Source of the DNA: Lytechinus pictus
Taxonomy: Eukaryota
Assembly (NCBI RefSeq): GCF_037042905.1
Contig: NC_087245.1
Span: forward strand, 14,200,001 to 14,264,000
Length of the DNA stretch: 64,000 bases
Direction: 5' to 3'
Positions within the stretch are counted from its first letter, which is position 1. Each line of letters begins with the position of its first letter. Made by a program: the position numbers and the translations under genes. The notes beneath the pieces were generated by a model. The model searched no databases. It worked only from the letters and a program-made list of their open reading frames with translations, and was not told the DNA's origin. This document shows positions 5,369 to 30,141 of this stretch, one piece after another.

Positions 5369-5468
5369 ATGTCTAAGGACGATAGCAGTTTACCCATAGG
5401 GGGGAGTGCAGGAGGTGGTAGGCGAGATCGTATGAGGAGATCTTTCCGTCGGTTTATGGGCAAAAAAG
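5369..5468 (+). CDS. trio: candidate alternative first coding exon A: MSKDDSSLPIGGSAGGGRRDRMRRSFRRFMGKK (phase 1)
   Basis: acaATG, 100 nt, donor AAG|gtgaaa, in frame with exon 30060. GC-richer and more protein-like than its flanks. Confidence 0.6.
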
Positions 5469-5704
5469 GTGAAAATAATGATCTTATATTGTTTTTTTTT
5501 TAAATTGGCAGATGATGAGAAGATGTTTGTTCCAGTGTTTTGTGAGATAATGTTTTCTGTAGATTCTAGACAGGGATTCTCCAAAGTTCTAATTTTATTG
5601 CTCTTTGGACCTGTTTATGGATTTGTCAACTATTGATTGGACTTTTCACAATTACCCCATTGTATAATGATAATCCAAATTATCCAATAATCATCCATCT
5701 TACA

Positions 5705-5935
5705 TTGTTCGAAATGGAAATCCTATGAAAATTCATTTTGCCCAATTGATCCTGGGCCCAGCAGCTGCTGAGCAGCTCTGGATCAACATTGCTCTATCCG
5801 TCTATCATTGAATGCTAAACAGGGTCTTAGCAACTCCCATCTTTTAACGTCTTTTAGCCTGACAAGGTCGGGACTTGAATTCCTGACCTCCCGCTTGTCT
5901 GGTGGACACTCTACCAAAGGAGTCAACACACCGGT
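5705..5935 (-). mobile_element. degenerate tRNA-derived SINE
   Basis: Minus strand starts ACCGGTGTGTTGACTCCTTTGGTAGAGTGTCC and has a B-box-like AATTCAAGTCC. Confidence 0.65.
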
Positions 5936-8724
5936 ACAAAAATGAAGGTTTAACGTTTTAAATAAAAAATCTCACTTGATATATCACAAAACCAGCTGTT
6001 ACATATCCCAAATTCATTTAGAGAATATTTTGTGTTTACTTTTGTTGCTACTAACATTTGCCATTCTGTTCTTATCTGTCATTATCATTTTCTTATCAGA
6101 CTTCACACAATATTTTTATTAAATTATTTTATTTATATGTTATTTAATAAATTTGATTTGTTGATATAAAATTTAGCAGATTTCATTCTAAATTTTGGAA
6201 GAACATTTAAATTCAAGTAAGGTTTTTCTAGTCATTCATTTACTGATTTATGTCCAATATCCAGGACTTTTTGTAATTTGTAATTCAATTCCATTAAGAT
6301 GATTAACAATCTGAAATCTTACAATGGATCAAGTTTAATAATAATATGATGAAGAGAGTCAGGTTCTTGTATGTAATCCTACATAGTTGTCATTCTATAA
6401 GACAGTAGATTAAAGATATAATAATTACTTTGTGAATTATATATACCTGTAAGGATTTAGAATATCAAGAGGATGTGACTTTGAATTGAATGTGAGACGA
6501 TGTTTTGTTTTAGAGCTTCCTTTAACAATTTTTAGGCAGTTACATGAACTTGGTATGTGAACTCATAGATGCCCTGGGTTTAATATGGCTCTGAAAACGG
6601 TCAACTCTTCTCAGTTTCAAAGGTAGTATGTGCTTAGAATTAAAATGAAAGTAGTTTCAAACACTGATGACCATCACTGATTGACTAAACAGTGATTTCA
6701 TGAGAAATCTGTAAATTCAAGGTTAATTGTTACCTCGTAGATCTAGATCTGGTACAGTTACAGTAACTGAACTTTTGTGAAATTATGAAATGTATGCGGA
6801 AAAACAAATAACAATCATACTGAAGATCACCAATACAAATGAGCACATTTTGGACAGTGTATTATTATTGCTTGGAAAAAGACCTGACATCAGCTGGAAT
6901 TTCTTTTTTGGGGGGGCTTATTTATCAGCAATTACACAATATCTTCAAGAATCCTTTGGCACATATTTTTGTTCATACATACGGTCATACCTGTGGACAC
7001 TTGGATGGTAATTTGATTTGATTCTGTATGAACTAATTTTGAAATTGCTAAAACAACTGGCATTTATATTTTGATTGTTTATCATTTCCATCCTTGTTTG
7101 TTTTTAAACTAGGCTACGTCCAGTAGTTGTAGGTCAGTATATGATTATAACTAAACTAGATTCCAAATGATAATAAAGGACTATATGATCCATTGAATAG
7201 ATAATAATATGAACCGATGCATCAAAACAGGCATGACAGGGTACTTGAATTTGAATGCATATTATGAAGAAGGAGAATAGAAAGGAATGCTCCCTTGGGC
7301 TGTGGACTGATAATACTCAAATGCACCAGTTATGGTGATTGATACGAATGACAGATGTACTGACTTCTGTCATGTTCATGTCCATTGGGGAAGCATTTCG
7401 TTTGGGCCTTTGTAATTCTGAATGTTTTTCGTACAATAAGACATACCTATTTTCATTGTTGCTTGTTTCCCCTCATGATATTTTAAAGGCAGAAATAATT
7501 AACACACTCTGCAAACACCCTTCATGAGCTGTTCACAATGTGAATTTCTAGTATTTGGTAAAATAAAAAATACAATTCCACTATAAGTTACTGAGCTAAT
7601 CAAAGATGAAATATAGTTATGATTTTTAGTTTAAATTGTGGAGGAAACTGTTTCCAACAGGTTTTGGAAGTTTGTTTAGTATGCATCAAAGAACTTGTCC
7701 TTTTTGCATTCATATTCATTTAACTTTGAAATCATTGAAATCATATTTGCTTTGGCACCATTATGCTTAATGAGTATTCAATAATATAACAATCAGTGAC
7801 TGAATGGAATTTGACACGCTTCTATTATGGAAAATGCATTGAGACGGTGATGAATATTTGTTTTAAAAAGACCAATTCTACAGAATGTAGATGCTGCCTG
7901 TACCAGAGTGAAGATTGGGAAATGGGGGCATCAGAAAAGTAGGATCATATTATCGAAACACTCGGTGAACAGAGTGGTTTTTAAACTGGAGGCATACATT
8001 TACGAGTATTCATGATGTAGAAGAAGTCATGACAATATTTTATATCAGAACTGTGCAACTAATATAGATCTCCTTCATATAAGACTTGTTATAAGACTTG
8101 TTCACAGAACAGGAAACATATATTGCATTTTCATTTTTTCTGCCCATCTGTCAATGTCTTTTATCTTGTTAGATATCATCAGTTATGACATGGCAGTTCT
8201 TGTCAACTTCCTTTTGTTATTCATTTCTGGATATGGTTTTAAACACATCACTGTAACTACCAAACAAAGGAAGATGATACCCCCCCCCCCATAATATGTA
8301 GTTAGAATTGAGGAAAAGATCATTTTATGGAAATGGTAACTAAAATAATTTACAGCTGAAAATAGATAGATATTTGTTTATTATACAGTAGTTAATACAT
8401 GTCCAGTGTTAGCACCTACGAAGTACTCATACAGAGCATATTTATAGGTAAGTTAATAACTAAAATAGGTAACACCATAGGCAAGTAAAAAAAAAGTAAG
8501 TTAATGAATTATTAAATTTCATACAAAAGTATAAGTTAGGATTTGTAAGTCGTCTCAATGAAAGTCCAAACAGTGTGGCTGTTAGGAATCCTGCTTAGCC
8601 CCCCCCCCCCCATCCTATTCAGTCCTTCTATGTCTTCATAGACAATACATAGTGGTACAGATAAAGTCAATAAGAAATCAGGCAAGCTAGTGGACTAGAA
8701 CTTCTTTAAATTATCCTAAGTTAA

Positions 8725-8903
8725 TGTGTGTTTGTGTGTGTATTTGAGTTTTATCAGACGTGTATCAATCAGATATGATTATTTACGTCTGGGACCGACC
8801 TTTTACGTCACCATCCGAAAGACGTGACCAGGGCTCGAACCTCTGCATCAATTTGTAACTTCCCCACAGCTTGGATTACAGGCGCACGCCACAACGCCCA
8901 GTT
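8725..8903 (-). mobile_element. SINE with 7SL/Alu-domain-like head, B box, 3' stem-loop and (CA)n tail
   Basis: Minus strand: AACTGGGCGTTGTGGCGTGCGCCTGTAATCCAAGCTG...GGTTCGAGCCC...CGTCTTTCGGATGGTGACGTAAAAGGTCGGTCC CAGACGT...ACGTCTG ATAAAACTCAAATACACACAC. Confidence 0.75.
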
Positions 8904-11737
8904 AAATGAACCTTGTCTTATATTAAATTAGAATAAACACAAGAACTATCCAGATAATAATGAAAAGATTGAACAAGGTCCAGTAAAATGTTCATAGGGA
9001 CATTTCTTAAAACTAGTATTAAACTGAGGATAACTTCAATGTAAGGGATTCCATAGTTCATTTTGAATAAGCTGTAATTACCATCAGTTACAAGAATTAT
9101 GTAGCTAATAATTAAACTAGTGGGTGTGATGTTATTTGATGATAATAAAGTATACACATGGCTAACATGAGCAGTAAGTCTTTGAAATGTTTGAGTAATT
9201 GGGTAAGTGAATGATAAATTCTAACTTGATTATTATATTCAGACACATATGATAAATTCACTCAATATTTACAACTCGATCCAATCAAAAATTAGAAAAA
9301 CATTTTTGTAATCATTAAAATGCATTCTACTTGCAGGGAATTCATTGAAGTAATGAATAATATCATTGGTCAATGAATATCACTGTGCATAGAGAAGTGT
9401 AATTAAGGTGACAATTTTCATTACCAACCAGCTGTGTTTTTCACCTACTACCAATCAATGGTAACCTTCACCATCAACATGCCCTGCTTTGTAAGTCAAT
9501 ATTCTTCAGTGATACCTTACCATTGTATAATCACTGGGAACCTTTGTATAGCATTCAAGTCATCTGGGGACTGTTCAACATGATACATAGTTTAAGTATG
9601 CTTAAGCACCAATGTGCACTTAAATAAGATAATTAGGTATTTAACATATTTAATCAATAAGACAATGAGTTAAGTGTGACTTAAGTCACACTTAACAGCT
9701 TCCATGTCCTACCAAAGCATATTCTCTCAAACTTAATATTTTTCCCATGTAATGGCATTTTTATGAAAAAAATTGTCCTTTATTTTAGAACAGCCATTGT
9801 AAAAACAAGCGGCATGTTGTGATTTTATTCATCAGAATAGTGTACTGCTTTATTTCTGTACTACCAAAGTTAACACTTTGAAGTTAAGAAATGCCTAATT
9901 CCTTGTTATTGGATACTGCTAGGTATTGAGATTGAGGCAGTTCATACTGAGTTACCCATCCCTATACAGTCACTCCACACCTCTCCTTAATTAGGCCCAT
10001 CCTGCTTTAAATGGTCATTTGACTGTCTGCCAGTCCATCTGTCTGGACAAACGTAAACAATAGATGCTTTCATACCCATCAGATCACACAAAAATAAATG
10101 CCTTAAAAAACTCATTAATTCTGTGCATTGACATCCATGTGAACCAGATAGAATTCTAAACAGTAATATGCATATACTTTCTGCCTCATATTAACAGTTC
10201 TTGTCATTTGCTTCCACACTATAAAAATCCCTGTGATTTGGGAGAAAACCCTGCAGTTTTCTTTCAGACTTACTATTAATTGGTTTATATTATCTTTTTT
10301 ATATCATATATTCTTTGCTTTCACAGTGACAATTGACAAAATACATGTACCTGGTTATTTTTTGTTTTGTGCATAACTCTAGAAAAAATCAAACATATTT
10401 TTTATTAGGTTGGTATGAAAGCACCCATTGCCCAACATTTCATTTCTATTGCTCTATGGTTTTGTTTATGAAACTTTTTGGTTACATGCCAAAAAAAGTT
10501 TGCAAATGTAATTGAGAATGGTTTCCATCAAGTAATGTATAGGGTTGTCTGAAATAGAATTATAATTTGTAATAGAAAAGATTCAAAGTATTTATGGTAT
10601 CCATGATTTTTCGTTTGGGAATCAAATTTCAATTTTTGCATTTCTGATTTTAACTTTAAATTGCACATTCACAAATTGATACTTGATATCAGATATATAT
10701 AACAAATATGTCTAGTTGGTGGTATTGCATTTGATCATGCATGATTTTTTTCTTAAGATAGAGGGTCATGGTCATGGCCAAGAAAGGTTTTTGGTTTAGA
10801 ATACTGTGACAATTAGGATTAGGTTATGGTCAGGCTTGAGTTAGATGTGATGTTGAGGTTTACATTTTGCCAAATGACGTGCATATTTTCCATAGGAAAA
10901 TTGTTCTGGAGCAAATGCCATGGATTGCTTCAAGTGTAACTCTTCCCAATTTGGACACAACTATCATCATATTCATACATAGGATGAGTAATGGGAATGC
11001 CAATTTTTAAGAAAAATATCTGCAAGGGCTTACTGCAAGAAATCAGACTGATTTGGTAATCTGGGCAAGAAACTGAAGAAAAGAACTGGAGGATGGTCAG
11101 TTGCTGATTAAAAGGTTGGATGATAATGTAATTATGATATTAGACCTTGCTGTATTCTAAGTATTTGACTTGACCCCATCCTGGGGGTGTCTAGTACCTT
11201 CAGACTTGGTCGATGACTGATTGCATTAAGGCTGGCTATCAGCCACTAGATCATTGAACCTTGCTTCTTTAACATTTTAAGATGATGTGTAAATTCCTTT
11301 GCGTGAATCCACCATAAGTTGAAAGACATGGCTCACCCGCCCCGCTTGTATCCTACCAACTAGTTAACTTTTATGCAAATAATAGTAAATGAGAGCATCT
11401 AAACTTAGGTAATTTATGTGTATCCACTGTAATTTTGAACCTGACATGTGTTCAACTGCCTTTAAAAATCCAGGCCTTTGCGTTTGACATACCCTCAGAC
11501 ATGCCAAGACTCCTGCATTACACATGAGATGCTCAGTTCAGGGGCTCTTGCTCATCTCTTTCTCATGCATGTATGATAATAATAGTGATATCATATTGAG
11601 CGCACACACCGTCCAGAGAAGCTCATGGTGCTAGCCCAGCAACAAACAGGATACAAATCTTTTATACATATAAACAGCTACAAAATATGGATATAAATAG
11701 AATCAACAAAGAAATCGTAAATCACTACAAGTACAGT

Positions 11738-11890
11738 CCTGTAACTTGTGAAGGTTTCCATGGCGAAGAAGAATAGTGTAGTAGGTTTCGCGGACACCAT
11801 GTATCTTTCTTGGGCAAGTGTTGGTCCTAAAAAGGACCACCCAATCTTGATGTTTTGACAAGTGTGTTCTTGTCGTCCTCGGGAGAATGT
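11738..11890 (-). mobile_element. probable Penelope-like pLTR remnant with decayed hammerhead (11845-11886)
   Basis: Minus strand TCTC-CCGAGGA-C-GACAAG-AACACA-CTTGTC-AAAA-CA-TC-AAGA, ending in CTTCGCCATGGAAACCTTCACAAGTTACA. Confidence 0.55.
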
Positions 11891-14271
11891 CCTGCATCAT
11901 CACCACTCAAATTCCCAGCTACATCCTGGTGGGGCCTGGTGCCCTTGTGCTGTATCACAGCCTGTCCTCACATATATTATACACGATCCCTATGAACTCA
12001 TGCCAGATCACAGAAAATCTCAATTAAATGTTTGAGGATGGAATCAGAGCATTGTCAGTCATTTTTATCAAGTAGATTTACACTGATAAACTTGCCAGCT
12101 ATGCCTACCTTGACAAAAAGTATCAGATTTTTCATCAAGGAGGCCAGTCAGGCTGTGGAACACTCCATTGCATCAGCCCAGATGTGCCCTTCATTTCAAT
12201 TCTCAGTCATAATGCCAGTGATCTTGATCATTATTATTATTTTTTTTTTTTGCAGTGGTGTCAAATTCTAGTTCATAATAAAAAATTTAAGAGGTATTTC
12301 TTGCTTTTCAGATGTTAAAAGTTTTCAAAATATCTCATCTCCAGATGAAGTTTAGAGATCGCATTTTGATCTTGTCTTCTGACCATTGCAAAAAAAAATT
12401 TAAAATCTGTTCCTGAATTGTACGACACATCTACAGTTATGGTCGACTGTTCCCAACTAGATTGGTCCTGGAAAGTGACTGCAAAAGTGATCTCTCAGTG
12501 TTTTCCAGTCAACCAGATGAAGTAGACCCTTTACAGTCCTCCAAATGCCACTAATATAATGAGATCTCAATATATAAGTTATCATTATTTATTAGAATTA
12601 ATCCATTATTTATTCATCTTTGTATGTCGTTAGGTTCTTAGGAATGCTATTATGCCACATCAGAAATCAGTTTTTACTTTGCACAAATTGACTTATTGAA
12701 GATTAAAAAAAAACTATGGCAAAGTTTGCACTTTGAACATATTACCATAGTTTCAATTCTTATGTTGGTCATAAATACTTAGTTTCAATAATAACTTGCG
12801 ATTTCTCAGTGCACTAGTGATGACCTAATGAAGAATCCCTATGAGAAACCCTAATCCTTTCACCTCATTAAATTTAAATGTAGGCTATCCAGATATATTG
12901 TAAAATGATAATAATAATAATAACAATTTTATATACTGCAAATTCGCAAATTGCCTCTAAGCGGTTAAGAGAAAGGAAATATGAAGTATGAAGGAAATAG
13001 AAATAGAAATACTTTGCACAACAAAATGGATCAAAACTAATATTACAATTTACAACTTTTTCTCACCAGATCATGAATAAAAAATACCATCAAATGGGCC
13101 AATAAAACAGGATGTTAGAAAACATACTGTAATCAGTTTATATTAATTATATACAGTGTATACATGTAATAAATCTGAGACTTTTTAAGTAATTTAGAAC
13201 TAGATCTGATAAATTCAATGCGTGGTTATAACAAAAATCATAATTTTGCTAACTTTTGCAGCTATATGGTTGAAGTTGAACTTTCTTCCACTAATTGTAT
13301 AACACCAATTCAGCTGTAAATGCCACCTATATTTCTTTTCTTTTATCTGAAGGATTTTAAACATTTAAATAAACCTTTGTTCTCATTTCTCTTCTCATTA
13401 CAATTAAAACTTGAAGTGGGTGAACACTGAGTTCTGCAATGCTTGTAGTATTTAAACAGGAACTATATGGTTGGAACCAGTATGTGATGGGTTGGGTTTT
13501 GTAAGATAGTGTCAAGGAAATTTTCTTGGCTGCTTATGGTTCTTCCATTCTTTTGTGCCATTTTATTTTACAAATGATAAAGGGGATAATGTAATGTTAT
13601 TTTGCCTTATTGTAAATTGATAGACTCATATATTTCATATTCAAGACACTTAGCAATGAAGAAAGTGGTCTTCTAATTTTCTAGGAATTACTTTCTTTGG
13701 AAAATTTCCTGAAGCTATTCTTTGTTTTTCCTTATTGTCTCTGATCCTATGTAGGCGAGTGATTGTGTCTTTTTGATAATCACCAAGTCGCGGAATCAGT
13801 TTCTGCGAATGCTTTTGAATATATTCTTGTAATACTACCTCTTCCATTTTATCAGAAGCATTGTACTTGCCGACTGTCCCCATTTATGACTTTTATAAGG
13901 GACTGCCCCTACTTAGGTGTAAAATGAAAGAACAAATTTTGCTCTGGATTTAAAACAAAAAAATAGTTAAAACTCATCTGACTGCATGGTTTTCGGACAG
14001 CACTCAGAAATGACCCTGATTGCAGTGAAACCAGCTCAACCCTTGTCCAGAATTGTATTAAATATGTATCCTCATAGGAATCTGTCCATAAAAGACCACC
14101 TTTTCACAAAGGCCCTTCTTGTCCCATGATATGCCACCATGTAGGTTTTTTTAAAATGTATATGCTATTCATGATTTTTATGTTGGCATGGTAAGTAGGG
14201 CTGTCTGGTCATAAGTGCACTTGGTGGGTTACGTGAACAAAGACACTTAATGCACTTCATAATACTACTTG

Positions 14272-15058
14272 GGCTGCGTTTATGCGACCTCAAGCCAGAA
14301 TCATGATTTGAATCATGATTTGAATCATGATTCAAAACACAAACATGAATCACAATATCACAGAATCAGCGTTTAGACGACCATCATTCCAATGCTGTTT
14401 CTCCTTAGATTCGGGCCAATCCAGTGCGCATCACTAGTGCGCAGTTTGACAGAGGAAGTTTTTCGCACGTGTTTTGGCTCTCGAAATACCCCCATTTTGT
14501 TTACTTCTATCATATAGGGTCCATATGCTTATATTCATCTTGTTAGTTTATCCAAAATGGTGTTCGGAAGTTAATTTCAGCGTAGATCCAATTTGATATT
14601 GGTATACTCAACAACAACTGAGATCATTTTCTGTCCAGTTAATTCATTTACTAGAACTTGAAGACATGACCAAAAAAAATGAAAAGTAGTGGATGATGCA
14701 ATGACCAACACAGAACTTGAACATGACAAGAAATGCATGCGTAGTACATGATCATGTACATACAATGAGCAAAAAGAGCGCCTTGAGCTTGGTAAGAGTC
14801 AAACCAAAAGTAGCCCGACACAACAGTGAGGTCATATAATCATGATTCAAATCACGATATCGTTTATTCGAACATTTTCGTACGTGATTCTGCAGAAACG
14901 TCTTTCCAAACGCCCCTTTTTTCGTGTTTCATGTTTGTGATTCTAATCATGATTATATTCAATTTCGACTAAACGCAATCGTGATTCTGCAGAATCATGA
15001 TTTGAATCATGATTCAGATCATGATTCTAGGGTAAAAAAGTGGCGGATAAACGCACCC
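14272..15058. mobile_element. PIF/Harbinger-like MITE with subterminal GAATCATGATT(C/T) palindrome arrays
   Basis: Termini GGCTGCGTTTAT and ATAAACGCACCC followed by TAA. GAATCATGATT occurs 3 times at the left end and 2-3 times at the right end. Confidence 0.75.
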
Positions 15059-15981
15059 TAATACAAGTGAGGATACATCATGCAGACATGCAGAAGATAA
15101 AGGTTTACCTAGATATATGAATATGGCTTTGGTAAATGAAAAAAAAATTGAGGGTAAAGAGATATTTTTAGAGTACTTTTAGATAATAGAATTGTTGTAA
15201 CAAATAGAGTAAGAACTTAGACATGTTATTTTGAGACTGCTTTATCATGTCCAGTCTCAATTGGAAACATAAATCTTACAATTGGATATGTATAACTTTG
15301 TGATACAGTTTATTATTACCAAAAGAATTAATATGTTTTACTTTTTTTCATTTTTTGTTGTTGTTGTGTTCTTGCCAGTTTTCTGGATATTGCATTCAAC
15401 ACCTAGTCAGTATTCTTTGGTGTCTGAACAGATAAAATTTGTCTGATCATTTTCCCGGTTGATTTGATTAACATTAAAGGGATAATGGAGGTTTATTTAG
15501 CTTCCAGGAAGTTGACTTTTCTATCAAACTCATGTTGCCATCTAAAGGAGATGGGTAGATTGCTTCTTGAAAATGAAAAGGTTAACTGCCATGGCTTTAA
15601 AGGTCATTAGGATGAAAGAAAAAATGTAAAGTTCATTTTCTTTACCTCATGTCCCATGCATATATACTGTAGGTAAATTACACAGAGAAAACACTGTGAA
15701 TTATGCAAACAGTTGTTAACTGAACAACCTGTTGCACAGTTTCAGTTGTAAAATCAAGAAGGGTTCTTCTTTTTTTTCAGACAACCTTTTAAACAATCAT
15801 ATGTAAAAATGTTTTAATACAATGTACAACTAGGGGAATGTAAACCTTTCCTTGGCTATACCATGTATTTATTGTCTTCTTTTTTTTGGGGGGGAGAGTC
15901 TTTGAATTATCACCTGTGATTTAAGTTAATAATGATAGTCTGAACTTGATGAGTCATTATAGTTTTTTATAAACCTCTCTT

Positions 15982-17070
15982 TAAGAATGTCGAATAATCC
16001 GTTCCTCTGATTGGTCAAAACTTAGGTCATGTAAACGACCATGCCCGCAAAACAACAAACTAAGGTGGTAATCAAGGGCAACGGGCATAGTTAACAAGAT
16101 TTCTGCCCGTTGCCCCCTGATCCGCCCCTTAACGATGGGGATAGCAAAATTTGGCTGAAATCCCCATTTGATTGCATGCAAAATGTTGCTTTCTGCGGTG
16201 ATTGCGGATACCATAAATATCCGCGCGATTTGATCGAGCGATTTGATTTGAACGGATATGACATATCGATGGAACGATGCCGATCTTTGACTTTTGCTTG
16301 TTAATTCTTGTTAAAATATACGGCATTGTTGAAAAGAAGACTAACTTATTAAGGACATAACGGATGTATCAATCATCAAGTCTTGTTGCAGTTGTTCGTT
16401 CAAATAAATGCTCGCATAAGGTGAGTCGGGTGAAAAGATAGGACGGTCACTGCACTTTCTAAAGTTAGATTTATTAGTAACCTTAGAGTCTAGACTACTC
16501 GTTAGGTATGACAAATGACAACGTTAGGTAATGTTGTCATGAGATCTAACGTTAGCTTAGGAGAATAAGAGTAGACTCACGATCTAAGTTAGGCTAGATC
16601 TAACTAGACCTAGGCCTAGTAATGTTCCGTTTAATCTTAGATCTGACGTAGCCAAGATCTAACGTTAGATCTAGACTCTAATGGAGATTTAAGACTGGTA
16701 ACGTATCTTAGAGTAGTTTAGACCCTAATTTGGTTCCTAAAAATATCTAGGCCCAGTATTGGTATGGACTGCTTTGATATTCGACTTCGAGACCTAACGT
16801 CAGGGGCAGGGCTAAGTTAGGGCCTAAGGTTAGCCTGGGGCCTAGAGCTTTCAGACCTAACTTGATTAAGATCTAGACTAGGCCCTATATCTAACGTTTA
16901 ATTCGGTTCTTAAAATATGCATGGACTGCTTTCATATTCGAGACAAGGTTGTTTCTTTCGGCTTGCGGGTACCGCATCGGCCAGACCATGCCCTCATGCA
17001 TAGTCGCGTTGCGGTCCCCTTGAGCCTCTAGAAACAACCATGCCTCTCAAAGCAGTCCATATATCTATAA
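15982..17070 (+). mobile_element. unclassified non-autonomous element lacking TIRs, with a 3' long imperfect palindrome (Crypton- or Helentron-like architecture)
   Basis: CpG-retaining block. Hairpin arms ATGGACTGCTTT..GGTTGTTTCT (16921-16957) and AGAAACAACC..AAAGCAGTCCAT (17030-17060). Superfamily is a guess. Confidence 0.5.
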
Positions 17071-20000
17071 TGTAACACTGCATAGGTTCAAATTTAATAT
17101 GATTTTTAACCACAACCACGATATCATATTTCACAAAGATTAAGGATGAACGGCATCACAGCAAACAAAACATTTAATCATTATATTACTTGACATGGAT
17201 CATGCATGTGATATTCATATTTTCCCTTACATTTGGCAACACAGTGAAGTATACACTGTAGATGACCTCAATCAGAATCTATTCAAGAAATGAATGGAAA
17301 TAAATAAACTGTTTTATAAAGCAAGTAAATTGAGAGAGAGTTTTTTTTAATTTTTTTGTGGGGGGGCTTTTACAATACTTGAATCCATTCTCAAATTGGA
17401 TAAAAAGGTGTACTATTTATTATGCATACCAATCGGTTTAATTTATATTTAAAGTGCCCAAATGGCCCCCCCCCCCCTCAAATAAAAATGGGATACAGAC
17501 TTTTTTCTTTCTTTATGGTTTTTAACCAATTTTCGGAATGGAATGGGACCAAAAAAAAATCTTTGTAAATATATGCTTTATACGAAACTAACCATCTAAA
17601 AGATATAAGACGAAATAGATTGTGTTGTTATCATATTCATAATAACATTACAGAGAGAGAATGAGTGAACAAAAGTAGTCAACACTATGATTCTCACAAA
17701 GATTCATTCAAGGAATAATGATATAACACATTAAATGTATAAAATGTGAATATCAGAGTGACAAATCAATATTATTCATATATTATTGCTTTAGATGGAC
17801 TGTAAGCTAAATGCAAATGATTGAAGTGGGTACTTGGTGTTCATCATGACCAGTCTTCTTATAGGTCAAGGGTTAACAGTAAGCAGTGATGACTTCAGAT
17901 GTGCAATCGTTGACACATCAGTAGTGGTTAGGAGCATCTGGAAAACCATCGAATAGCAATTATGCAATGCCATGAGTCATGATCACATAGTATTTACAAA
18001 GCTCAACAGGGACCAACTGACTTATGATTCTGGTAATATAGATTTGAATGAAATAGACTTGTCAGATGATGTAGCAAGAACAGGTATTTAACCTGTTGCA
18101 TACCTGAACCAGGTATTCCCTGAACAAAGTCAATGGGAATCAAGACAATTTGGTATTCATAGGGTTATTTTCATCCATACATTGCACCATTCAGGAAGCA
18201 GCATGGTCTGCTGGTTTTGACCTTCGTGGTGAGGGTCATGGGTTCAAAGCACAACAATAAAATGCATTTATATTGTGCTGCGCTCAACCAAAGTGTAGCG
18301 AATGTTTGCTCACAGTGTGGCAGAAAAATTAATTTCTTCAAATTCATCTGCTTACGATGACAGACAGGATAATGTCGGGGTATATTGACAATTAGTACCT
18401 TCAGCATACCGCACAATTGATTAAATATTTATGAAGGTTTTTTTTTGGAGGGGGGGGGGAGGATTTAGTTATACTATTTTGATATGTTCATGTTACAGAA
18501 TCTCTTTTGCAGTATGATAATCAGACATTGTTATATTTACAAACCTGTTTATATTGTCATTGATTCCTGATTTTTATTTGTAATTTGTAAAAATATGAAG
18601 GAAATAAACAAAGCCAGTTATAAATAGTGAATTCATAAATGGAAATAGATTAAACACACTTTTTTTTGGAAAATGAATATGTTCATATCTTCAGATGATT
18701 TCATATATAAATATAGTGGTAGAACTTCCAAATTTGAAGGGCAAAAAAAGAGAAATTCTAGAGAATACTAATTGGTTTGTCACCAGATAAAAAGCTGAAA
18801 TCGGAGAAAAGCAGATAATGTGGAAGACAAATGTATGTAACTTTTTATCAAAATCATACTCATTTTCGCTCACCGTGTGAATTTAGATGTAAGGTTATTT
18901 TGGGGCTGGTATTTGATCTCATCAAAACAGTTAGGGTTGTTCTTATTAAAACTTATAATAATTTTGGGAAATGTTGTGTACGCTTGTACCAGGTTTCACA
19001 TTTAAAGAAACTCATGATGTGGAACATCATTATTTTCATAGCAATTAGCATACTTCTGTACCAAAATGCAAAATAGTCCAATATTCAACAAGTTTCATTT
19101 TTATTTTGGTGGATTGTTTTTAGAATAAAGGCAATTATAAGATGATACTTCCTGAATCGTAATTTGTTCAGATTAGATATGAAACATGTTTAAAAGTAAA
19201 GTGTATTAGACTATCTTTCTCATCACTTACTAAATCTGTCGTTTTTCTTCAATAATGTCATTTTTTGGTGCCACATTGGTGTATTTTGATTCCACCTCTT
19301 GGTATGTACAATGCCTTGTACCACTGCTGAATGCATTGACATTTTGAGTATTACATCGGACTGTTTTGTGTAAGGTTAGAAGAGCTCTTTGCAAGATGAA
19401 AATATACAAATTTATTCCACCTTAGCTATCCTTTAGCTTTAGATTTGTGCAGACAGACATGCATGCTTGCCTGTTATTATTGAGTGTATGATGCCTTGCC
19501 CTGTGCAAGGTAAGTAATCATGTGTGTGTTATTTGTGTGTGAGTAAGTGTGTATGGGACTGTGTAGTGGAGATGGCCATGTGTGTATGGTGGGAATATTG
19601 ATGCAGGGAATCTTAGGCAGTGTGCGGGATGAGAAGACAGGCAAAATAATTCTCTCTGCTTGTTGGATACCCAGAGATGAGAAACTGGTGACATTATGCA
19701 CTGGTACACTTTCTCCTGCGTGTACACAATGCCATGCTTGCACTGCATCAGTGTATGCTGCCATTATTATTGTTGGCGCAATGCATTGCAGCAGTGCTGG
19801 TGCTATACATGCAGCGCATAAATTAAGCTTGTTTTGATTATAAGGGCTTGCGCTTTATTCCCAGGTATTGAAAAGCTAGTGGGTGGGAAAGCCCACTGTT
19901 TATTTGTTTGTGTATTTCACAAGCTTATGATTTCTATTGTGAATATTGCTTATTCTCTCTTTTGGTCTCCTTTCCTGTCTCTCTTTCTCTTTCTTCTGTC

Positions 20001-21809
20001 ATGCAATGTTGGATATGTTTTTTTTTTGTAGCAATGGGATGGTAGTTTTGCTTATTTGCAAATGATCTATACATAAACTAATTAAACAGTGTTATAAGTG
20101 AACTCGCTTATAATTCTATTTTATTAGCAATACTTAAGTGAAGGTGCAATAGTTTAAAAGGGCAATGCCAAGAATTATAGAAATGTAGAAAATTGGTGGC
20201 AAAAAATGGAGACAGTAAGTAAGTAAGAGACAGTATAATTTAAAGCTAAAGAACAAGAGTGTATGCATTTATTAAAATTTATTTCATCCATAACCAAATG
20301 GAATTACAACATCATTAGAATGAACCATTGAGTTAAAAGTGAGATATGTAAACTTGTATTTTATTTTATGTCATGGAAAGGGGAGGGGAAATGCACTTTA
20401 CCTCTCAATGTTGAAAAAAAAAATCTTGAGCTTTTGATTTTTATTAGCTAATTTATTATGGGGAGAAACAAAAGTAGAAAATGGTGAGGAGTGGAAGAAG
20501 ATGAAAAAATACCAAGACCTCTAATTCATGGTATAATTTTAAAATCAATCAGATCATTTAAGGATCAATATCAGTGTTTTGACCTAAGCCAATAACCCCT
20601 TATCCATCTGTATCAAGACTTGTTTTCCTCTTGAATACATACCCAAAATAAACTATTGAAAATTAATTAGGCCTGAATTGGCATGATCCCTCAAAGCACA
20701 TTTAACAGTTACTTATACATGCTTCATGAAAGAAAACCTTAGTTGTGGTTAAACAGTCCCACTGTTCCAACCCCAAATAACCTCATCCAAAAATCAATTT
20801 TACTCCCCCATTCAGTAAACCCACTACCCTTTAATCCTAAGTATTCTTAAATGCTCAATTATACCAACAGTTCGAATTCCTTTTCATTGTTCCAGAGTCC
20901 TTTAGTCTCTTTACTTTAATTCGATTTTAATCCATTTAATCCATAGAGTAATGCCATTTGATTTGTAAGAGAACTGTAGACTGCTACAAGGAGTTCTTAG
21001 AAGGTTGTATTTAGCAAAAGGCAGTAGTAAAGGGTAATAGTAAAGTGCAATAGTAGGGGTATGTATATCAAAAGTTATTTAACATAAAAATAAATGCTGT
21101 AGTTTCAGAACTGGCATTATCAGGTTCTATATCTGAGACCTCAATGTGCTTAAAGAAAGGTTGAATTTGATTATTTCCTTTGATATCTAAGCATAGTAAT
21201 ATTGAAACTTTTGTTGGTTTCCATTTGGAAATAATTTTTCATATCTTGTTTTACCATAGAGCTACATGCAATGTTAAGCACTTTAATTTAGCCACCTTAG
21301 GAAAAGTCTTTTTGCAGGAATCCCACTCTGTATCTGTACCATATTAATCCTCCCATTTGAGCACCATGAGCATTTTTGGACACTGCACCAGACAGATCTA
21401 CACGATTATTACAGACATGCCAACCTTTCCCTTTTTAGAGTATTTGTTCCTCTTTTTTGCTATGAATACGCCAATATTTATTGTATGATTTGTTACTTTT
21501 TTTACATTTTTGATCATGGAGTATATATACACAGCGCGCGACACCAGCGCAGGTCCGACAGTCCCAGACCGGTAAATATCGCTGTCAGGCCAGTAACTTG
21601 TTGCATGAAAAGAACAAGTAAATTCTTGCCTATGAGCACATGTTTGAAATGGTGAATTATCAAGTAGAGACATTTCACATACAACAGGCTGGCGATTGTT
21701 ACGTTAAGACAAATTTTTAAAATTACTCTTTTTTGGGGTCAAAAAATCTTTTTTTCCTTCTAAGAATACTTTTTTCTTGTAGAAGGTTGGCAGGTCTAAT
21801 ATTATCAAT

Positions 21810-21935
21810 TGTCAAGGCATTTATCTGCATTTGCCTCTATCCACCCAGGTAGAGTAAATGGTTACCCAGACAGAATAAATTTCTCAAATGCTTAAGCTCC
21901 TAGGCAGCCCAGCTAAAGCTGTGGATAAAATAACA
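21810..21935 (+). mobile_element. SINE central-domain fragment
   Basis: CCACCCAGGTAGAGTAAATGGTTACC resembles the core of the 40774-41056 SINE. Confidence 0.55.
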
Positions 21936-22844
21936 TGATCATTTTAAGCAGGGCCTGCTTGATGAACCTAGGTAAAAAGAAAAAAAATCACTTGGTAAAA
22001 TATGCTATAAAAATATTATCATCATTATTATTAATAGTATCATTAAACTTAATAATGGGGGATGCAGGCAAGCCACTAAAAGATCCTCTGCAGGACTCCT
22101 GTTGTGAATGTTGAGGTGCAATACTGATCATCTTTAAAATAATTGAACCATGTTTTGTAAAATATGAATTATGCATGTTTTACGAAAATCGGGTGTGTAC
22201 CCATTACCAATAGTTCATGAACAAATGTATTCATGCAGATGAGAACAGCCATGAAAGGAGAGTAAACATATGGATGTACCCATTTGACACTCACTCAACC
22301 ATCATAGAGCATTTTTGTGCTCCCTTTAATAGAAATGGAAGTGCATTAACCTTTCCACTCAATGGTCAAAAGGCCAAAGAGATTTTTTTTGTTAATCTTT
22401 AGATAAGAATGAAGGGTTGTGTGGATGGACAACAGCAATTTTTGATCTTGCTATAATTTATCTGTTAGATTTCATGAGGTTCTTGTCTTCAAAACTCTGG
22501 AAATACTAGAGACTGCATCATCTTAGAAAGATCTGGGCAGGATACAGTTTGTTCCCTTTTAGAAGTTTGAAAATGATTAAGATCGCAGTTCGCGAGATTA
22601 GAAGTAACGATGGATGGAAAGGAATTTGAAGAAAATGTTGTCGTCTTCGAGCAAATATTTCCAAAGATTTTGTGTCTGAGATGAGAGTGTTTTCACCTGG
22701 AGGATATTTTTATGAAAAATTACATTAGATTTTCAAGAATATATTGGAAAACTGTGATGGACTTAGATTAAGACTTTTGGAGCAGTATCAGACAGCTGTC
22801 TTGCTTATGTTCTAAAACTTTTATCGAGACTGAAAATTGTTGAG

Positions 22845-22920
22845 ATGATAAAATTAAAGAAACGTTCTTTGTCGCTACCCTCCAATTTCAAATTTTGGAG
22901 GACTGGAGGCATTGAGTCAG
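22845..22920 (+). CDS. trio: candidate alternative first coding exon B: MIKLKKRSLSLPSNFKFWRTGGIES (phase 1)
   Basis: gagATG with upstream in-frame TAG at 22764, strong donor CAG|gtaaga, in frame with exon 30060. Confidence 0.62.
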
Positions 22921-25819
22921 GTAAGATGAAAGATCTATGTGGTTTCTCTATTTGCTTGAGGATGTAGTGTAACAACTATTTCCTTAGAGATGACTTGAAA
23001 AGCCATCTCTTTTCCTGGAGGTCTAAACGTTGGCCTGTTTCGAAATCTAGGTAAACTGTTAGCTGAACAATGGGTGTACTTTGATAATAGACAGCTTTTT
23101 GAATAGGTGTTTATTGCTCTGTTTCTTTTTCACTTTACCATCAAAAGCACTCACCACGGGCCATTTCTGCCCTCTTCTATTTTTTTATGTTCCTTTATCA
23201 GTTTATTTATCTCTCTCTCTCTTCTCTTTGCTTCTCTTTGCTCCCTTGTTCTCTATTCTCCTTGTTTTCTCTTCTCTTCCTTGTTTACCCTCTTCCCCTC
23301 TGTGCTATTCTCTTTCCCATTTTATTTTTTGTCATTCCTTCTCTTCCCTTCCTTTCACATTTGTTTCTCTCTCTCTCTCTTTTCTTCATCTCTTCTCTCT
23401 TTTTTGTCTTTTTATGCAAAATAATCTGATTTGAAAAGAGAATACATTGCTGGTAACACAGAATGAGTTGCAGACAAAATTGAAATTACGGGAAACTGAA
23501 AAATCAATCTCAACTTAGTTTATTGAATCAATTGTTATAACTTGCAATAGATTGTTAAAAAGTTGCTTTTTATTTCAAGTATCCCTGCAACGAGCCCCTT
23601 GTCTTGTTCTTCTATGAGAAACCAATCTTATCCTGCAGTTTGTGACTTTCTTGGTCTGACTCCCAAGTCTTAAATTCATCTTCCCTTTTCTCCAGCAATA
23701 TACCATATACATTATGTATACAATGCCCTGTGATTCTCTTGTCGTTTGCATGTTTCTTTTTGATACGAAAGATAAGTGTGTTAGTACTTGATAATTGGTA
23801 ATCCTGTTTGCAAACATTTATTTTGTGATGAACAGAAAAAATCTTTTAAAAGTTAAGCTTTGGCAACGTACAGAACATGTAAAATTGGGTTAAGTTGTTG
23901 TAAATACATTTGAGCATCCTGCTTCAGGTTCACATAATATATTACTGTTTTGAGACTGAATCGTGTATTGCAATGAAAAGATACAAGTATCCTAGTACAA
24001 CAATATACCAATTTTCTATAATGGACAATAAAACCAAAATTGTATTTATTTCAATTTTTTTTTATGTAAGACCAAATATTGTAGTAAATTGATTCACAAA
24101 TTTTAATCTTGTGAATGTTTTTTATCTCAATATTTTTATATACATCAGATTTTGCTCTGAACACTACATTATCTGTTAATTACATCAACCTCTTATGAAA
24201 TTTTAATTTATGTACTCAAGACGTGCAGATAGCATCATACAGTGTTGACAACAGTCTGTGGAAATGCGTTTTTGAATATTAAGTCTGAAATTTGATGCAG
24301 ATTGGCGACAGCAACTTGCTATGAGTTAAAGACGTAACATTTTATTGGCGGACAAGGTTTATAATGTAAGTAGGATAAGTCTTTAGCCTGTATTCTGGAG
24401 TCACATTTTATTTTTTAATAAGTCTGTGTTTTAAACATGGATAGCTAGATATGATGCACATGCGTACCTACCTATAGATATGCTAGCATATGTGGCATTC
24501 AAACTAATAAATATCTGTCTAGAAATGATAATTAAATTATTTTTTTTTCTAATTAGAAAAAAATAGTAAACATTAGGTTATGCATGATTTTACTACAACA
24601 TAGCCGTGGCAGAAGTTGAGCTAGAGTTCAGAATATGTTGCCTTTCTACTTAAAACTGCATTTAGAACTCTTAAAAGTCATTTGCATGAGACTTCACAAG
24701 GAGAATGGTCTTTTCTAGCTTACATAATAAGTGTTTGATTTATTTGTTGACCTGTCCCAAATCAGAAGAATGCCAGGAATGTGCAAAGCCCAATGAAAAT
24801 TGCACAGCCCTCCCCACAATTGATGTTTGGTGGCATTGCGGGACTGACAATACCCAGTGAATCCTTCCAACTTTACTGACTCTGTCATGAGTATTGTGAT
24901 CTGCACGTATCATATATATTTACTCCTGGAGACTTTTTTTCTGATCTTACCTTCAAATCTTACATTTACCCTTCTGATAATTCTTTCAGCATGTTTGAAG
25001 AAGGTTGCTAATTAAATCCATTTTTTATGTAATTTTCCTGTTGGTTGGTCTGGATTTGTTGTAAAATCAACTATTTCCTGGTCAGGAAATATAAAGTGGT
25101 TTTGATTTCATCAGCTGATTACATTTTGTTGGACTTCTGAGGAGTTTTTACTGGAATAAATACTCGGGACTACGTGTATACCTGTATTTTTACATATATT
25201 TCTGCTTGTAGAAGCAAGACCATTTCAGTAAGTGTAAAGGAAATATGCAATATTGTCATGTAGGACCTAATCTTTTCTTTACTGACTTAAGTTAACAACG
25301 TTATAGACCTATACCCTCCAAATGGTGTCAGATGCATTATATTGTGAAATTGTGTGACTAATATATAGGCTAGGCCTTCAAGTCTGTCTGCATGTTGGAT
25401 TAATGTAAGACATGAAATCATTGTCATTTCATTCATGAAAATGTAATTTCTGGGGACTGAAAGACACTTCCTTAGTTACAAATTTATATACTTAGTTACT
25501 AGGGTACAAAGTTAGTTAAATGGGGGGGGGTGAAAGAAACTTAGCTACTAAGTTATGAAGTTAAATAATTTTCTTTCCCCCATAGAATTCAGTAATAAAG
25601 AAGGTCTTACACAAGCGCAGCTGCATAAAATCATGCCTGTTATTATTATTTAAAGTAAGATAGGAATAGTAAATAACAAATGAATTAATGAAAGGAAAAT
25701 CTTGTTTGTTATCTGATATATCTGTACCTTCCCTCTACAAATGAAATCTATAGATTAAACCATAGGCCACTTGAACTAGTGGCTTCTTCTAAGACAAAGC
25801 CCAAGGAATTTTAGAATTT

Positions 25820-26335
25820 ATTGTACAACGCCTACTTAGCTTGTTGTACGCGAGCAAAAGGCTGAATGTCTAACATTCATACTATTGCACACATACCGTC
25901 CAAATTGTACCATCCATAATGTACCGTTGCACGGTCAGGAACAAGATGACGTCACTATAAAAATTAGGATTGAATGCATTGTGCTTAGTATTATTAATGC
26001 ATTGGGCTTAATGGTTAAATGCAAATTGCTGCTGCAGATCAGATGGCCGTAAGAGTGATTTTTTTTTTTCGCTTTCAGTAATTCTTATTTTCATAGATTA
26101 TGAAAAATTAAGGGAAAATTGATTATTGTTCATATTTTCGCTAACTTGCAAGGCATTGTACAAGACATATAATAAATTATATTCTTATTTGTGCAATGGC
26201 GTGACATTTCGCATTCGGTGAAAGAAAGAGACACTCTATTCAACTCGGCTGAGCCTTGTTGAATAGAGCATCTTTCTTTCACCTTATGCGAAGTCTTGCA
26301 CCATCGCACTCATGCCTATTCTCTATTTGTATATA
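25820..26335 (+). mobile_element. interspersed repeat with ~120-bp 3' palindrome, copy 1
   Basis: Shares its start ATTGTACAAC.CCTACTTAGCTTGTTGTA and its end CACCATCGCACTCATGCCTATTC with 57158-57629. Hairpin GGTGAAAGAAAGA..CTCTATTCAAC / GTTGAATAGAG..TCTTTCTTTCACC. Confidence 0.8.
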
Positions 26336-27154
26336 ATATAGTCAACATGTTATCAATATTGTGACCATCTCCAATCAAACATGCCTAACCGATTTCACTT
26401 ATAATTGCATAATGAATTCAGATATTTTGTTATATATCAAGCTAGCCTTATCAAAACCAAGGCTCTGTCTTTAGACCTATTAATTGCGTTAATTGTCCGG
26501 AGAGAAGCACTAATCAAATATCTCTCACTACAATACTGGACATATCTCTTAGGGAAAGCTGTATGCCATCAATTAAGGAAATCATTTATGCAATATTTCA
26601 GTCCCTGAAGTAAAATTACAGCTTCTTGGTTTGGCTTGGGTAGAAAAGAATCGCCATGGTAACCAGCTTCTTTCTCTAAATTACCATATTAATGGAAATC
26701 TTTTTTAAAGTGCTGGTTGGCCATGAGACAATAGAGCAGCTATGCGATGATAATATGTTCATTCTGGCTTGCCCCTGTATTGCCTTGCTGCTGTATGTTG
26801 TGCAACAGGCGCTATTTTTTCTTTCATTTGACAGAGACTTTTTCTTGATAACATCTTACATAAGATTCCATAGAGGGATTTTGCTGTATGCTTTTTGTCT
26901 CTGCCACTGTGGATAGGATTGAGATTCATCTCATTTATCACCCGCTGTGTAGACCTTGCTGCAGATAAAGACCATCGTTTCACCTTCTCATCGGCATTTT
27001 AACTTCTTGCTTAGCAGATGCTACTTTCCTTTTTCTTTCCATTCATTTTTATCTTCAACCTGTTGCATCAGCAACTGAATATTTGGTGGCCTGATAGCTT
27101 TTAGCATTTTGTTTGTATTCACGATTGCATGTGTGACTAAGAAGAGATTTCATC

Positions 27155-27233
27155 ATGCAGGGGATGCTACGAAGCTGTTGCTTGTTTAGGCTGAAGGAGG
27201 AATCACCCCTAATTGGGGAAGTTTGTTATCCAG
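27155..27233 (+). CDS. trio: candidate alternative first coding exon C: MQGMLRSCCLFRLKEESPLIGEVCYP (phase 1)
   Basis: atcATG, donor CAG|gtatta, in frame with exon 30060. Di-Cys N-terminus recalls Duet and p63RhoGEF. Confidence 0.6.
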
Positions 27234-27539
27234 GTATTATTTTCCGGTTCTATACACTGGTACTTATTCACTGGTACTATTCACTGGTATTTTCACTGGT
27301 CAAAGATATTCTCTGGTAATGATCATATTATATAAAATTGCACCAAGGCACTAACTCTTGTAATGGGTACATCATACAAAATATATATATTATTCATTCA
27401 CATGTATATCTGTTGTCTTGATAAGATATGTATTTCTGGTTCAGCACTTACAATCATTAGATAGATATGACATTCTATATCATGATTTTTGTAGGTCATG
27501 CTGCCGCTGTTTCTTTTAAAGCAAATGGCTACTGTCATA

Positions 27540-27680
27540 CTTCTGCTCCTAATTCTACTTCAAATTCCACTTCTACATCTACTTCTCCTTCTACTTTTAC
27601 TTAAACATCTATTTCTACTTCTACTCCTTCTTCTACTTCTACATCTCCTATTTCTCCTTCTACTTCTACTCCTCCTACTT

Positions 27681-27712
<32 letters not shown>

Positions 27713-27777
27713 GCTGCTACTACTTCTACTACTACTACTTCTAGTACTACTACTACTACTACTACTACTACTATTTA

Positions 27778-27847
<70 letters not shown>

Positions 27848-27911
27848 ACTGCTACTACTACTACTACTACTACCTCTACTACTACCTCTACTTCCACATC
27901 TACTACCACGC

Positions 27912-27978
<67 letters not shown>

Positions 27979-28300
27979 CTCTACTTCCACATCTACTACT
28001 ACGCCTACTTCGACTTCTATTACTACATCTACTTAATGTCCATCAACTGAAACTTGTGCATCTACCTCTACCTCTCTACCTACTCCTGCTTCTACTTCTG
28101 CTCCTACTTCTACTTCTACTTGTACTCCTTCGTCTACTCCTACTCCTGCTTCTACTTCTCCACCTACTTCTACTCCTACTCCTATTTCTACTTCTACATC
28201 TTCTACTTCTAGATGTAGTATTTTTCTACATGTCTATCTCTACTTCTGCATGTCTACTTCTACTTATACACACCTACATCTACATCAACATGTCTACTTC
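27540..28300. repeat. compound (CTA)n/(CTG)n microsatellite within a degenerate CTACTT low-complexity tract
   Basis: Long CTA runs around a CTG run at ~27792-27850; this produces the poly-Leu ORF 27498..28355. Confidence 0.95.
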
Positions 28301-30059
28301 TTATACATGTTTGTCTCTTTACAAGTCTACATCTCCTCTGTGTATGTCTACATGAAGTCTACTTCTGCTTCTGTCATTGTCTGCTTGTACTACTAATTGT
28401 GTGTCTATGTCTATGTTAACATATATTTTTACTTCCAATTTTGTCTATATCTTCTTTTCATCTTCTTCTTTTACCTTTCATTCTATAGCCCAAATTCTTA
28501 GTGTTATATTGGGTGCGTTCATTTTAGGTGAATTGAAACATGGATGAAGATTCAAATTGATGTTTTAGCTTAGTCAAGGGGCTTGTACAATACAGCATTG
28601 GGGTATACAAGATTGTATCATTAATCTCCTTGATTTGATAAGCACTGTAAACAACCACAATGCCCTGATAGATATTTCCATTTGGATTTAACCAGCATAT
28701 GCAGATCTACAGCAAATGTTAGATTAAATACTCTTACATATTCATCAGTTACTCTTTATTATCATATATATATTCAAGTGCAAGATCCTGTAGACTTAAT
28801 GATAATGCATTGAGAAACGTGTGGAGAGAAATAGAGATTATTATCATGTTTCCACAGCTTCATGACACAAAGCTTTGCAATCAATTTTGCAAATAGACAA
28901 TGGTCAATCAACCCCCTTGTTGCGCACACACAATATTCAATACCAAATATTGAGCAATTGGAATAACTTCTTGAAATTTGTAATTGATTGTAAATCTTTG
29001 TGATATATATGGGGTCCTTATGCAAAATGTTACAAGAACAAACATGTTTACACAACATGGTGAAAACATATATTTTTATAGCGAAATATACTTCCTAACT
29101 GGACTCATTGGTGCAAGGTACAACTTTATTGTGCATATAATTATACAATGTCCAACATATCACTATAACGAAACATGTCAGGTTTTTAGGGATTTATGCA
29201 TAATTATGTATTTACTGTGTAATGCGAAGCCAACATAGTTGTACTGAAATGCAGAGCATATTTTGGTTGCTCTTGTATAAATATAGTGATTGCGTGAAGT
29301 TTAATTATTACATAGATGTACCTGTTTATTTTTCTTCAAATTCCATCCTTTTGTGAAATTTCCATTGTAACTGTGTGTATATCATACATGTATATGTGTG
29401 TGTGTGTTTTTTTTCCTGTTTTTTCCTTCAAATATTGCACAAGCCCATGTATCTGTATGTCTCTGGATCCCATGTTTATCATTGCTGATCACTGATATGA
29501 TCAGAGTAATCTGTTGACTTACATACTCTGTCAGTCGCCAATATTTACAATGGCCCATGCTGGTTTTGTCGCAAAACCCACCCAAAATAATGAAATGCCT
29601 CATTGTATGCAGGGTATCAGCATGAGACTTTCATCGATGTGCTTTAGTTGTTTTGAGGTATGCTGCAAATTGTTTTCCTCGAAGCCATTATGTTGACTGT
29701 CCTTTACAGCAAGGAAAAACCAATTTTAAATCACTAAGGCAGATCCAGGATGTTGTGAAAGATTGGACACTCAAATATCTGAATATTTTCTTTCAAGTAA
29801 TAAAAATAGCAAGGGTTTCTACCTTGACAAAGTTGCTGTTTAAAGGGTTATGAGTTTAAAAAGGGGGCACTTCTCATAGAAAAAAATTAGGGCCACAGAT
29901 AAGTAGTTATCCCTTCAAAATTTGTCACAATGGGTGGGGGTGTAGGCATGTGCCCCTTGCCTGGCCTTCCACCTCACAAACAGCATTCATGATGACTGTT
30001 TAGAGAAACACTGGTATATTCATGTATCTTGTATTGTTTTCTTTCTTTTTCATTGATAG

Positions 30060-30141
30060 AACTTGAGGGCGGTAGCGCAGGAGGACTGGGACCAATCAAC
30101 AACAATGACTTACAAGGACCGAAAAGAAAGGGCAGTATAAA
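30060..30141 (+). CDS. trio: trio internal exon, phase 1 to 2: (E)[26 protein letters not shown](K)
   Basis: Acceptor ttttctttctttttcattgatag, donor AA|gtaagt. Joins 36422 to give [15 protein letters not shown], like Kalirin GPKRSTNTLKKWLTSP. Confidence 0.88.

Follow-up and report, generated by a model that had tools for sequence, protein, structure and literature searches.

Short isoforms of Trio/Kalirin-type guanine nucleotide exchange factors (GEFs) have been described in mammals and in Caenorhabditis elegans. The mouse Duet promoter is located in the intron ahead of exon 35, with forms with and without the kinase (PMC3541206), and several DUET start sites are reported for human KALRN (PMC11630257). 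UNC-73 D1 and E of C. elegans contain RhoGEF2 only and are described as acting downstream of Galphaq (PMC3280986). For ARHGEF25, the N-terminal exons are reported to place p63RhoGEF580 at the membrane through cysteine palmitoylation and to leave the 619 form cytosolic (PMC5105084, PMC3722567). Activation of RhoA by the two forms is reported to be similar (PMC5105084), and thus location need not alter the size of the output. Here, a comparable arrangement is described from the sea urchin Lytechinus pictus, in a window of 64,000 nucleotides (the whole stretch of DNA analysed; contig NC_087245.1, positions 14,200,001 to 14,264,000, forward strand). The window contains the second GEF unit (GEF2) half of the sea-urchin Trio/Kalirin gene, preceded by three alternative first coding exons, A, B and C. 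Initiation inside the gene probably yields isoforms lacking the first GEF unit (GEF1), in which A, B and C act as swappable N-terminal tags on one RhoA-type DH-PH module.

The locus resembles ARHGEF25 (p63RhoGEF580, p63RhoGEF619, GEFT) in that alternative N-terminal exons are attached to a RhoA DH-PH unit, Galphaq-activated in ARHGEF25 and putatively so in the urchin, at the equivalent D/E junction, and in having both Cys-bearing and Cys-free tags. However, ARHGEF25 is a separate short gene, whereas the urchin exons lie within a complete Trio gene; a single pair of neighbouring Cys is found in the urchin Cys tag, which lacks a basic flank and shows no similarity that could be aligned; and the basic tag of A is unmatched in the ARHGEF25 N-termini compared. 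With KALRN Duet (Duet9, Duet12), as far as it is described in the sources cited, the locus shares a probable initiation within the gene, by which GEF1 is lost, several start sites, and forms with and without the kinase, but the urchin gene is the invertebrate Trio/Kalirin counterpart. The likeness to UNC-73 D1/E, as these are portrayed, lies in short isoforms with the Rho-specific GEF alone, which in UNC-73 act below Galphaq. Starts with B, with C and of the A type are already found in deposited models, and short vertebrate TRIO records such as DAA17791.1 start at the same junction, but the five L. pictus models lack A and the tags carry no assigned function. No account of echinoderm Trio isoforms was found in the titles and abstract openings covered, subscription papers being outside this coverage.

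Exon map and gene context

The coding parts of the three exons and the acceptor that they share are as follows; the donor scores, in bits, come from an approximate matrix.

5369-5468, + strand: exon A; 100 nt, 33 codons plus 1 base, opening with ATG, no stop, GT donor in phase 1, donor score 6.5
22845-22920, + strand: exon B; 76 nt, 25 codons plus 1 base, opening with ATG, no stop, GT donor in phase 1, donor score 11.5
27155-27233, + strand: exon C; 79 nt, 26 codons plus 1 base, opening with ATG, no stop, GT donor in phase 1, donor score 4.5
30060-30141, + strand: common acceptor exon; AG ends at 30059, phase 1 in and phase 2 out, the phase also required by the SH3-1 exon

The initial annotation had named at least three ATG-initiated short reading frames with phase-1 donors and the acceptor at 30060, and had claimed that each opens the DH-PH frame. 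Both statements were confirmed: the coordinates are exact in start codon, open frame, GT and phase fit, and from A, B and C the chain 30060-63798 can be read through for 928, 920 and 921 codons, respectively, with 0 stops. Fifteen downstream exons, bordered by AG/GT and consistent in phase throughout, were placed in this chain. In-frame stops are located 10, 27 and 7 codons ahead of the ATGs of A, B and C, respectively, and none of the seven pyrimidine-rich acceptors within 300 nt of the three exons yields an open cassette; A, B and C are therefore first coding exons and not cassettes of the long form. This is a Duet-type layout: the intron that follows SH3-1 holds the first coding exon, and the join is made at the D/E junction ahead of KWLTxP. 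Second in-frame ATGs were found in A at 5432 and in C at 27164, the latter just past a possible weak acceptor (AG 27158-27159). The donor of B is the highest among all listed candidates. Each of the three regions gave one genome match, in a search that skips very common words.

The PH exon of the window is a 100% match to a Lytechinus pictus kalirin-like record, and the gene context was inspected over 80 kb upstream and 40 kb downstream of the window. GEF1 is found on the same strand, some 67 to 59 kb ahead of the window, and the SH3-1 exon has a phase-1 donor at G000:C1:14154147, 75,912 bases upstream of the 30060 acceptor. SH3-2 follows directly past the window end, with Ig/FN3/kinase exons farther downstream. 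The order is that of Trio/Kalirin: two DH-PH units flank an SH3, and a further SH3, Ig/FN3 and kinase come next, all of them collinear on the same strand. RhoGEF, PH and Kalirin SH3 were detected in the locus with Pfam. Because GEF1 and SH3-1 are upstream and SH3-2 and Ig/FN3/kinase downstream, A, B and C lie within one 75,912-base (75.9 kb) intron of a full Trio/Kalirin gene.

The solved structures nearest to the DH-PH unit were TRIO 6D8Z (E 4.5e-106) and ARHGEF25 2RGN (8.8e-97), compared with 2.4e-54 for TRIO GEF1 2NZ8. The unit is predicted from these matches to be a RhoA GEF of the TrioC/p63RhoGEF type, with TrioN as the more distant match. Downstream of the PH domain, the ALQSPI extension is kept, and one Phe of 2RGN upstream of it is replaced by Leu in L. 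pictus and Diadema and is Phe in Patiria. We take this Phe ahead of ALQSPI in 2RGN to be a Galphaq contact. The Leu-for-Phe swap falls in the region of 62480-62496 and 62750-62770, is found in both echinoids, and may bear on Galphaq coupling.

Gene models, conservation and age of the junction

The deposited models that bear on the three exons are listed below.

XP_054752225/232/242/251 and XP_063952687: L. pictus models of the locus, with B or C starts
XP_071476198 (Diadema) and XP_038071799-802 (Patiria): A-type models, starting with the basic motif of A

Clustering of the L. pictus protein at 90% groups five models, all of which begin with B (2) or C (3), and none with A. B opens XP_054752232.1 (X2) and XP_063952687.1, which belong to two accession series. 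C opens XP_054752225.1 (X1) and XP_054752251.1 (X4), and X3 begins at the second Met of C. The use of B and C is thus indicated by annotation.

A basic motif like that of A opens one of two Diadema and all four Patiria models, joined to the same acceptor residue; in the second Diadema model, SH3-1 reads directly into the 30060-30141 exon. The Diadema start is identical to the last 12 residues of A, and the Patiria start matches at 10 of 13 residues. When either start was scored against the 1959 phase-1 GT sites with an open frame in the intron, position 5468 ranked top for both species, with scores of 62 (next 20) and 50 (next 22). By these protein comparisons, exon A is conserved from sea urchins to sea stars, and its use in L. 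pictus appears probable. Patiria has Leu at the position of the urchins' second Met, and initiation upstream, here at 5369, is therefore likely.

The exon pattern itself occurs at chance level. Candidates, defined as frames of 20 or more codons that open with ATG and run to a phase-1 GT scoring at least 4 bits as a donor, numbered 20 in 1-30059, 13 on the reverse complement and 6 in 30142-54380, and the pattern was rejected as proof of function (20 forward vs 13 reverse). Support above chance comes from the RefSeq models for B and C and from cross-species conservation for A. A fourth candidate, at 17972-18083 on the + strand, is a further frame running from ATG to a phase-1 donor (37 codons, donor 6.0); it has no Pfam match and no gene model and lies outside the repeats matched.

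The age of the junction was assessed in 13 isoform groups, hand-picked from matches, three of which were uninformative (motif not found, identical starts, different species). Nine groups split exactly at D/E, 28-43 residues ahead of the conserved Trp, and one splits a residue later; the nine comprise two urchins, bat TRIO, four ARHGEF25 sets and two spiders. Such a split would be expected for a phase-1 intron ending in G, an intron position that outside L. pictus is read from proteins only. Alternative N-termini at the equivalent site in vertebrate TRIO, ARHGEF25 and spiders point to an old junction. A Cys-cluster start was observed in 8 of the 10 informative groups, yet these represent three lineages (urchin, vertebrate ARHGEF25 and orb spiders), and the urchin Cys tag does not align with the ARHGEF25 or spider tags. 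Short Trio-like records of spiders, a beetle and a bryozoan, and a kalirin-like record, also have Cys-cluster starts.

Tags, proposed mechanism and alternatives

The three tags are short and disordered. Tag A consists of a Gly-rich linker followed by a basic amphipathic motif with an RRSFRR core, and has a net charge of +7. Ser25 of this tag fits three of the four positions for conventional protein kinase C (PKC), namely -2, +1 and +2, in all three species, with Met or Leu, not a basic residue, at -3; the consensus is given as R/K at -3, -2 and +2 with a hydrophobic residue at +1 (PMC4238808). The amphipathic moment of its 11-mer is 0.93, matched by 2% of shuffles (Patiria 0.94, 4%), values that are optimistic because the best window was picked; in B and C amphipathicity is ordinary, 28% and 20% of shuffles reaching it. 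A basic-Ser-hydrophobic motif akin to that of A is also present in the part common to all isoforms. Tag B has a net charge of +5 and an RSxSxP motif, a putative 14-3-3 site whose letters fit the mode I consensus, RSx-pS-xP. An Arg before and a Pro after are described for 14-3-3 ligands (PMC3690454). Tag C has an adjacent pair, Cys8-Cys9, and a net charge of 0.

In the proposed mechanism, transcription would begin inside the 76-kb intron after SH3-1, presumably with one promoter per exon, giving GEF1-less mRNAs similar to those of Duet and p63RhoGEF. A, B or C would then provide the start codon and be spliced to the 30060 acceptor, as the SH3 exon is in the full-length mRNA. The predicted product is one RhoA-type DH-PH unit, including the presumed Galphaq-responsive extension, headed by one of three tags that are unrelated to each other and 25-33 residues long; by analogy with ARHGEF25, these tags probably set the resting location. 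Tag C may reach the membrane via palmitoylation of its Cys pair, and tag A via electrostatic and amphipathic binding that would be reversible by phosphorylation; tag B may be a weaker basic form or one held by 14-3-3. The initial annotation had regarded the intron as swapping N-terminal tags onto GEF2-only isoforms. Alternative first coding exons on one RhoA-type DH-PH unit, at the attachment site of Kalirin Duet and ARHGEF25, are supported, but the term "GEF2-only" is inexact: the models keep SH3-2, Ig/FN3/kinase exons lie downstream, and the A-type isoforms of Patiria run through the kinase. The isoforms are GEF1-less and not strictly GEF2-only.

Several observations weigh against such a set of three promoter-linked tags. 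The models with exons B and C are RefSeq XP predictions, and homologs of B and C were not found among the few echinoderm records compared. Among the matches listed, there were no full records of Strongylocentrotus or L. variegatus, and one Holothuria record came from a search for longer relatives. When 19 non-echinoderm N-termini were compared with the intron, the best E was 0.007, and A, B and C were absent from the top two matches per query. The donor of C is below 14 of the 15 downstream donors, and tag C does not have the basic flank of the p63RhoGEF tag. Upstream of the three exons, a composition scan detected no stretch rich in CpG. Finally, 353 chance frames (B and C counted in) contained 2 A-type motifs, 2 RSx[ST]xP motifs and 12 with CC/CxC in the first 12 residues; given these rates, conservation backs the motif of A only.

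These points bear on the alternatives to different degrees. One or two internal promoters with non-coding leaders could serve the locus, A, B and C being second exons picked by splicing and the proteins remaining unchanged. This is possible but doubtful: the start of X3 at the second ATG of C, right after AG 27158-27159, the pyrimidine-rich acceptors ahead of all three ATGs (5252, 22562, 27014) and the missing CpG signal are in its favor, whereas X1 and X4 retain the first ATG of C, so that this AG is unused there, tissue-restricted promoters in general need not be CpG-rich, and the sole promoter-like island that the intron has within the window is a dispersed repeat. Alternatively, only A, and perhaps B, may be functional, with C or B lineage-specific, low-level or chosen by the predictor and devoid of targeting, and with short promoters serving expression only. 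We regard this as a tentative alternative, consistent with the frequency of the exon pattern by chance, the missing homologs of B and C, the weak donor of C, the ordinary amphipathicity of B and C, and L. pictus models that are incomplete for the gene, as though long introns had divided them. However, the donor of B is the best, and B opens models of two accession series; starts with a Cys cluster are found repeatedly at the junction in ARHGEF25 and spiders; and RefSeq isoform variants normally require transcript support.

The motif of A might also be a protein-binding or nuclear-import signal (calmodulin-type helix, nuclear localization signal or pseudosubstrate) instead of a membrane anchor. 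Short basic amphipathic helices in general fill all of these roles, and the similar motif in the common part of all isoforms agrees with such a role. Nonetheless, this appears unlikely, as GEF2 acts with membrane-bound Galphaq and RhoA, and a membrane site is reported to raise the signalling efficiency of the vertebrate paralog (PMC3722567). Far less probable still is that A, B and C are internal cassettes of full-length Trio or that the GEF2 half is a stand-alone gene. All five L. pictus cluster models are without GEF1, as these readings would have it, but in-frame stops lie upstream, there is no open cassette, and records of Diadema, Holothuria and Anneissia read through the junction; a stand-alone GEF2 gene was rejected in view of GEF1 and SH3-1, which lie upstream with a phase-matched donor. 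Alternative first coding exons on a GEF1-less module remain our preferred reading.

Other features and significance

The remaining exons of the chain are listed below.

36422-36542 (conserved KWLTSP), 43461-43538, 46202-46369 (PPPM motif), 54388-54529 and 54914-55040, + strand: linker exons
47149-47241, + strand: cassette exon of 93 nt, phase 0-0, just ahead of GEF2
55702-62496, + strand: DH2-PH2 (GEF2), eight exons, with Pfam RhoGEF and PH and solved matches TRIO 6D8Z and ARHGEF25 2RGN
62750-63798, + strand: large exon, starting with the ALQSPI extension after PH, then a disordered Ser-rich tail

The cassette 47149-47241 is present in three and absent in two of the five L. pictus models, and its position is also in or out in Patiria and vertebrate kalirin records. 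Exon 37 of human KALRN is described as a brain-enriched exon of 32 residues (PMC11630257). By its position and a weak similarity, the cassette appears to fit this exon and is possibly an alternative exon of deuterostome age. XP_063952687.1 ends in a single exon of 586 residues, about 2.8-4.6 kb past the window end, that is acidic and Ser/Cys-rich with tandem repeats; it is an alternative end to the kinase-bearing exons farther down.

Several repeats occupy the introns. A CpG-rich 1.1-kb repeat at 15965-17070 is dispersed in the genome with 70-96% identity (40 scored of 322 candidates). The repeat has a strong-looking donor near 16421, and its tail abounds in TAGATCT/CTAGGCC words. It looks like a mobile promoter plus first exon and could lend start sites to host genes. 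The CpG-rich island with a strong donor at 16001-17000 was set aside as a common promoter, since it is part of this repeat. A multi-copy, MITE-like (miniature inverted-repeat transposable element) element of about 790 bp with terminal and subterminal inverted repeats is located at 14269-15061, and a candidate first exon at 14723-14825 was rejected as lying inside it. A tandem array of CpG-rich units of about 460 bp is intronic at 48100-50500. At 13650-13883 on the - strand, there is a single-copy, protein-like ATG frame of 77 codons with a sub-threshold MyTH4 match only; a nested minus-strand gene (13650-13883, 15981-16310) was not supported, with no Pfam match over the cut-off.

The tag-swapping design is already known, and B and C are already annotated. 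What is new is exon A in L. pictus, its conservation to sea stars, and the idea of a PKC switch. On a broader and speculative view, to which we attach little confidence, the intron after SH3-1 would have served as a slot for exchangeable localisation tags from the last common ancestor of bilaterians onward, with ARHGEF25 as a freed copy of the short isoform; the portion of PMC5499878 consulted contains no statement on the origin of ARHGEF25. Echinoderms would have added the lipid-free tag A, whose basic amphipathic helix, bearing a PKC-type serine, would keep the GEF at PIP2-rich membrane and let it go once Galphaq, phospholipase C (PLC) and PKC fire. One receptor could then elicit transient Rho activity via A, sustained activity via palmitoylated C, and recruitment on demand via B.

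Overall, this locus would represent an invertebrate deuterostome case of p63RhoGEF/Duet tag swapping within an unduplicated Trio, and bears on the origin of the isoform logic of ARHGEF25. Exon A would correct the five L. pictus cluster models, and its 12-residue motif, kept from sea urchins to sea stars, could serve as a link between two arms of Galphaq signalling, PLC/PKC and RhoA. For the imaging of cortical Rho, the eggs and embryos of sea urchins are standard material, and would therefore be an easy test bed for the tags.

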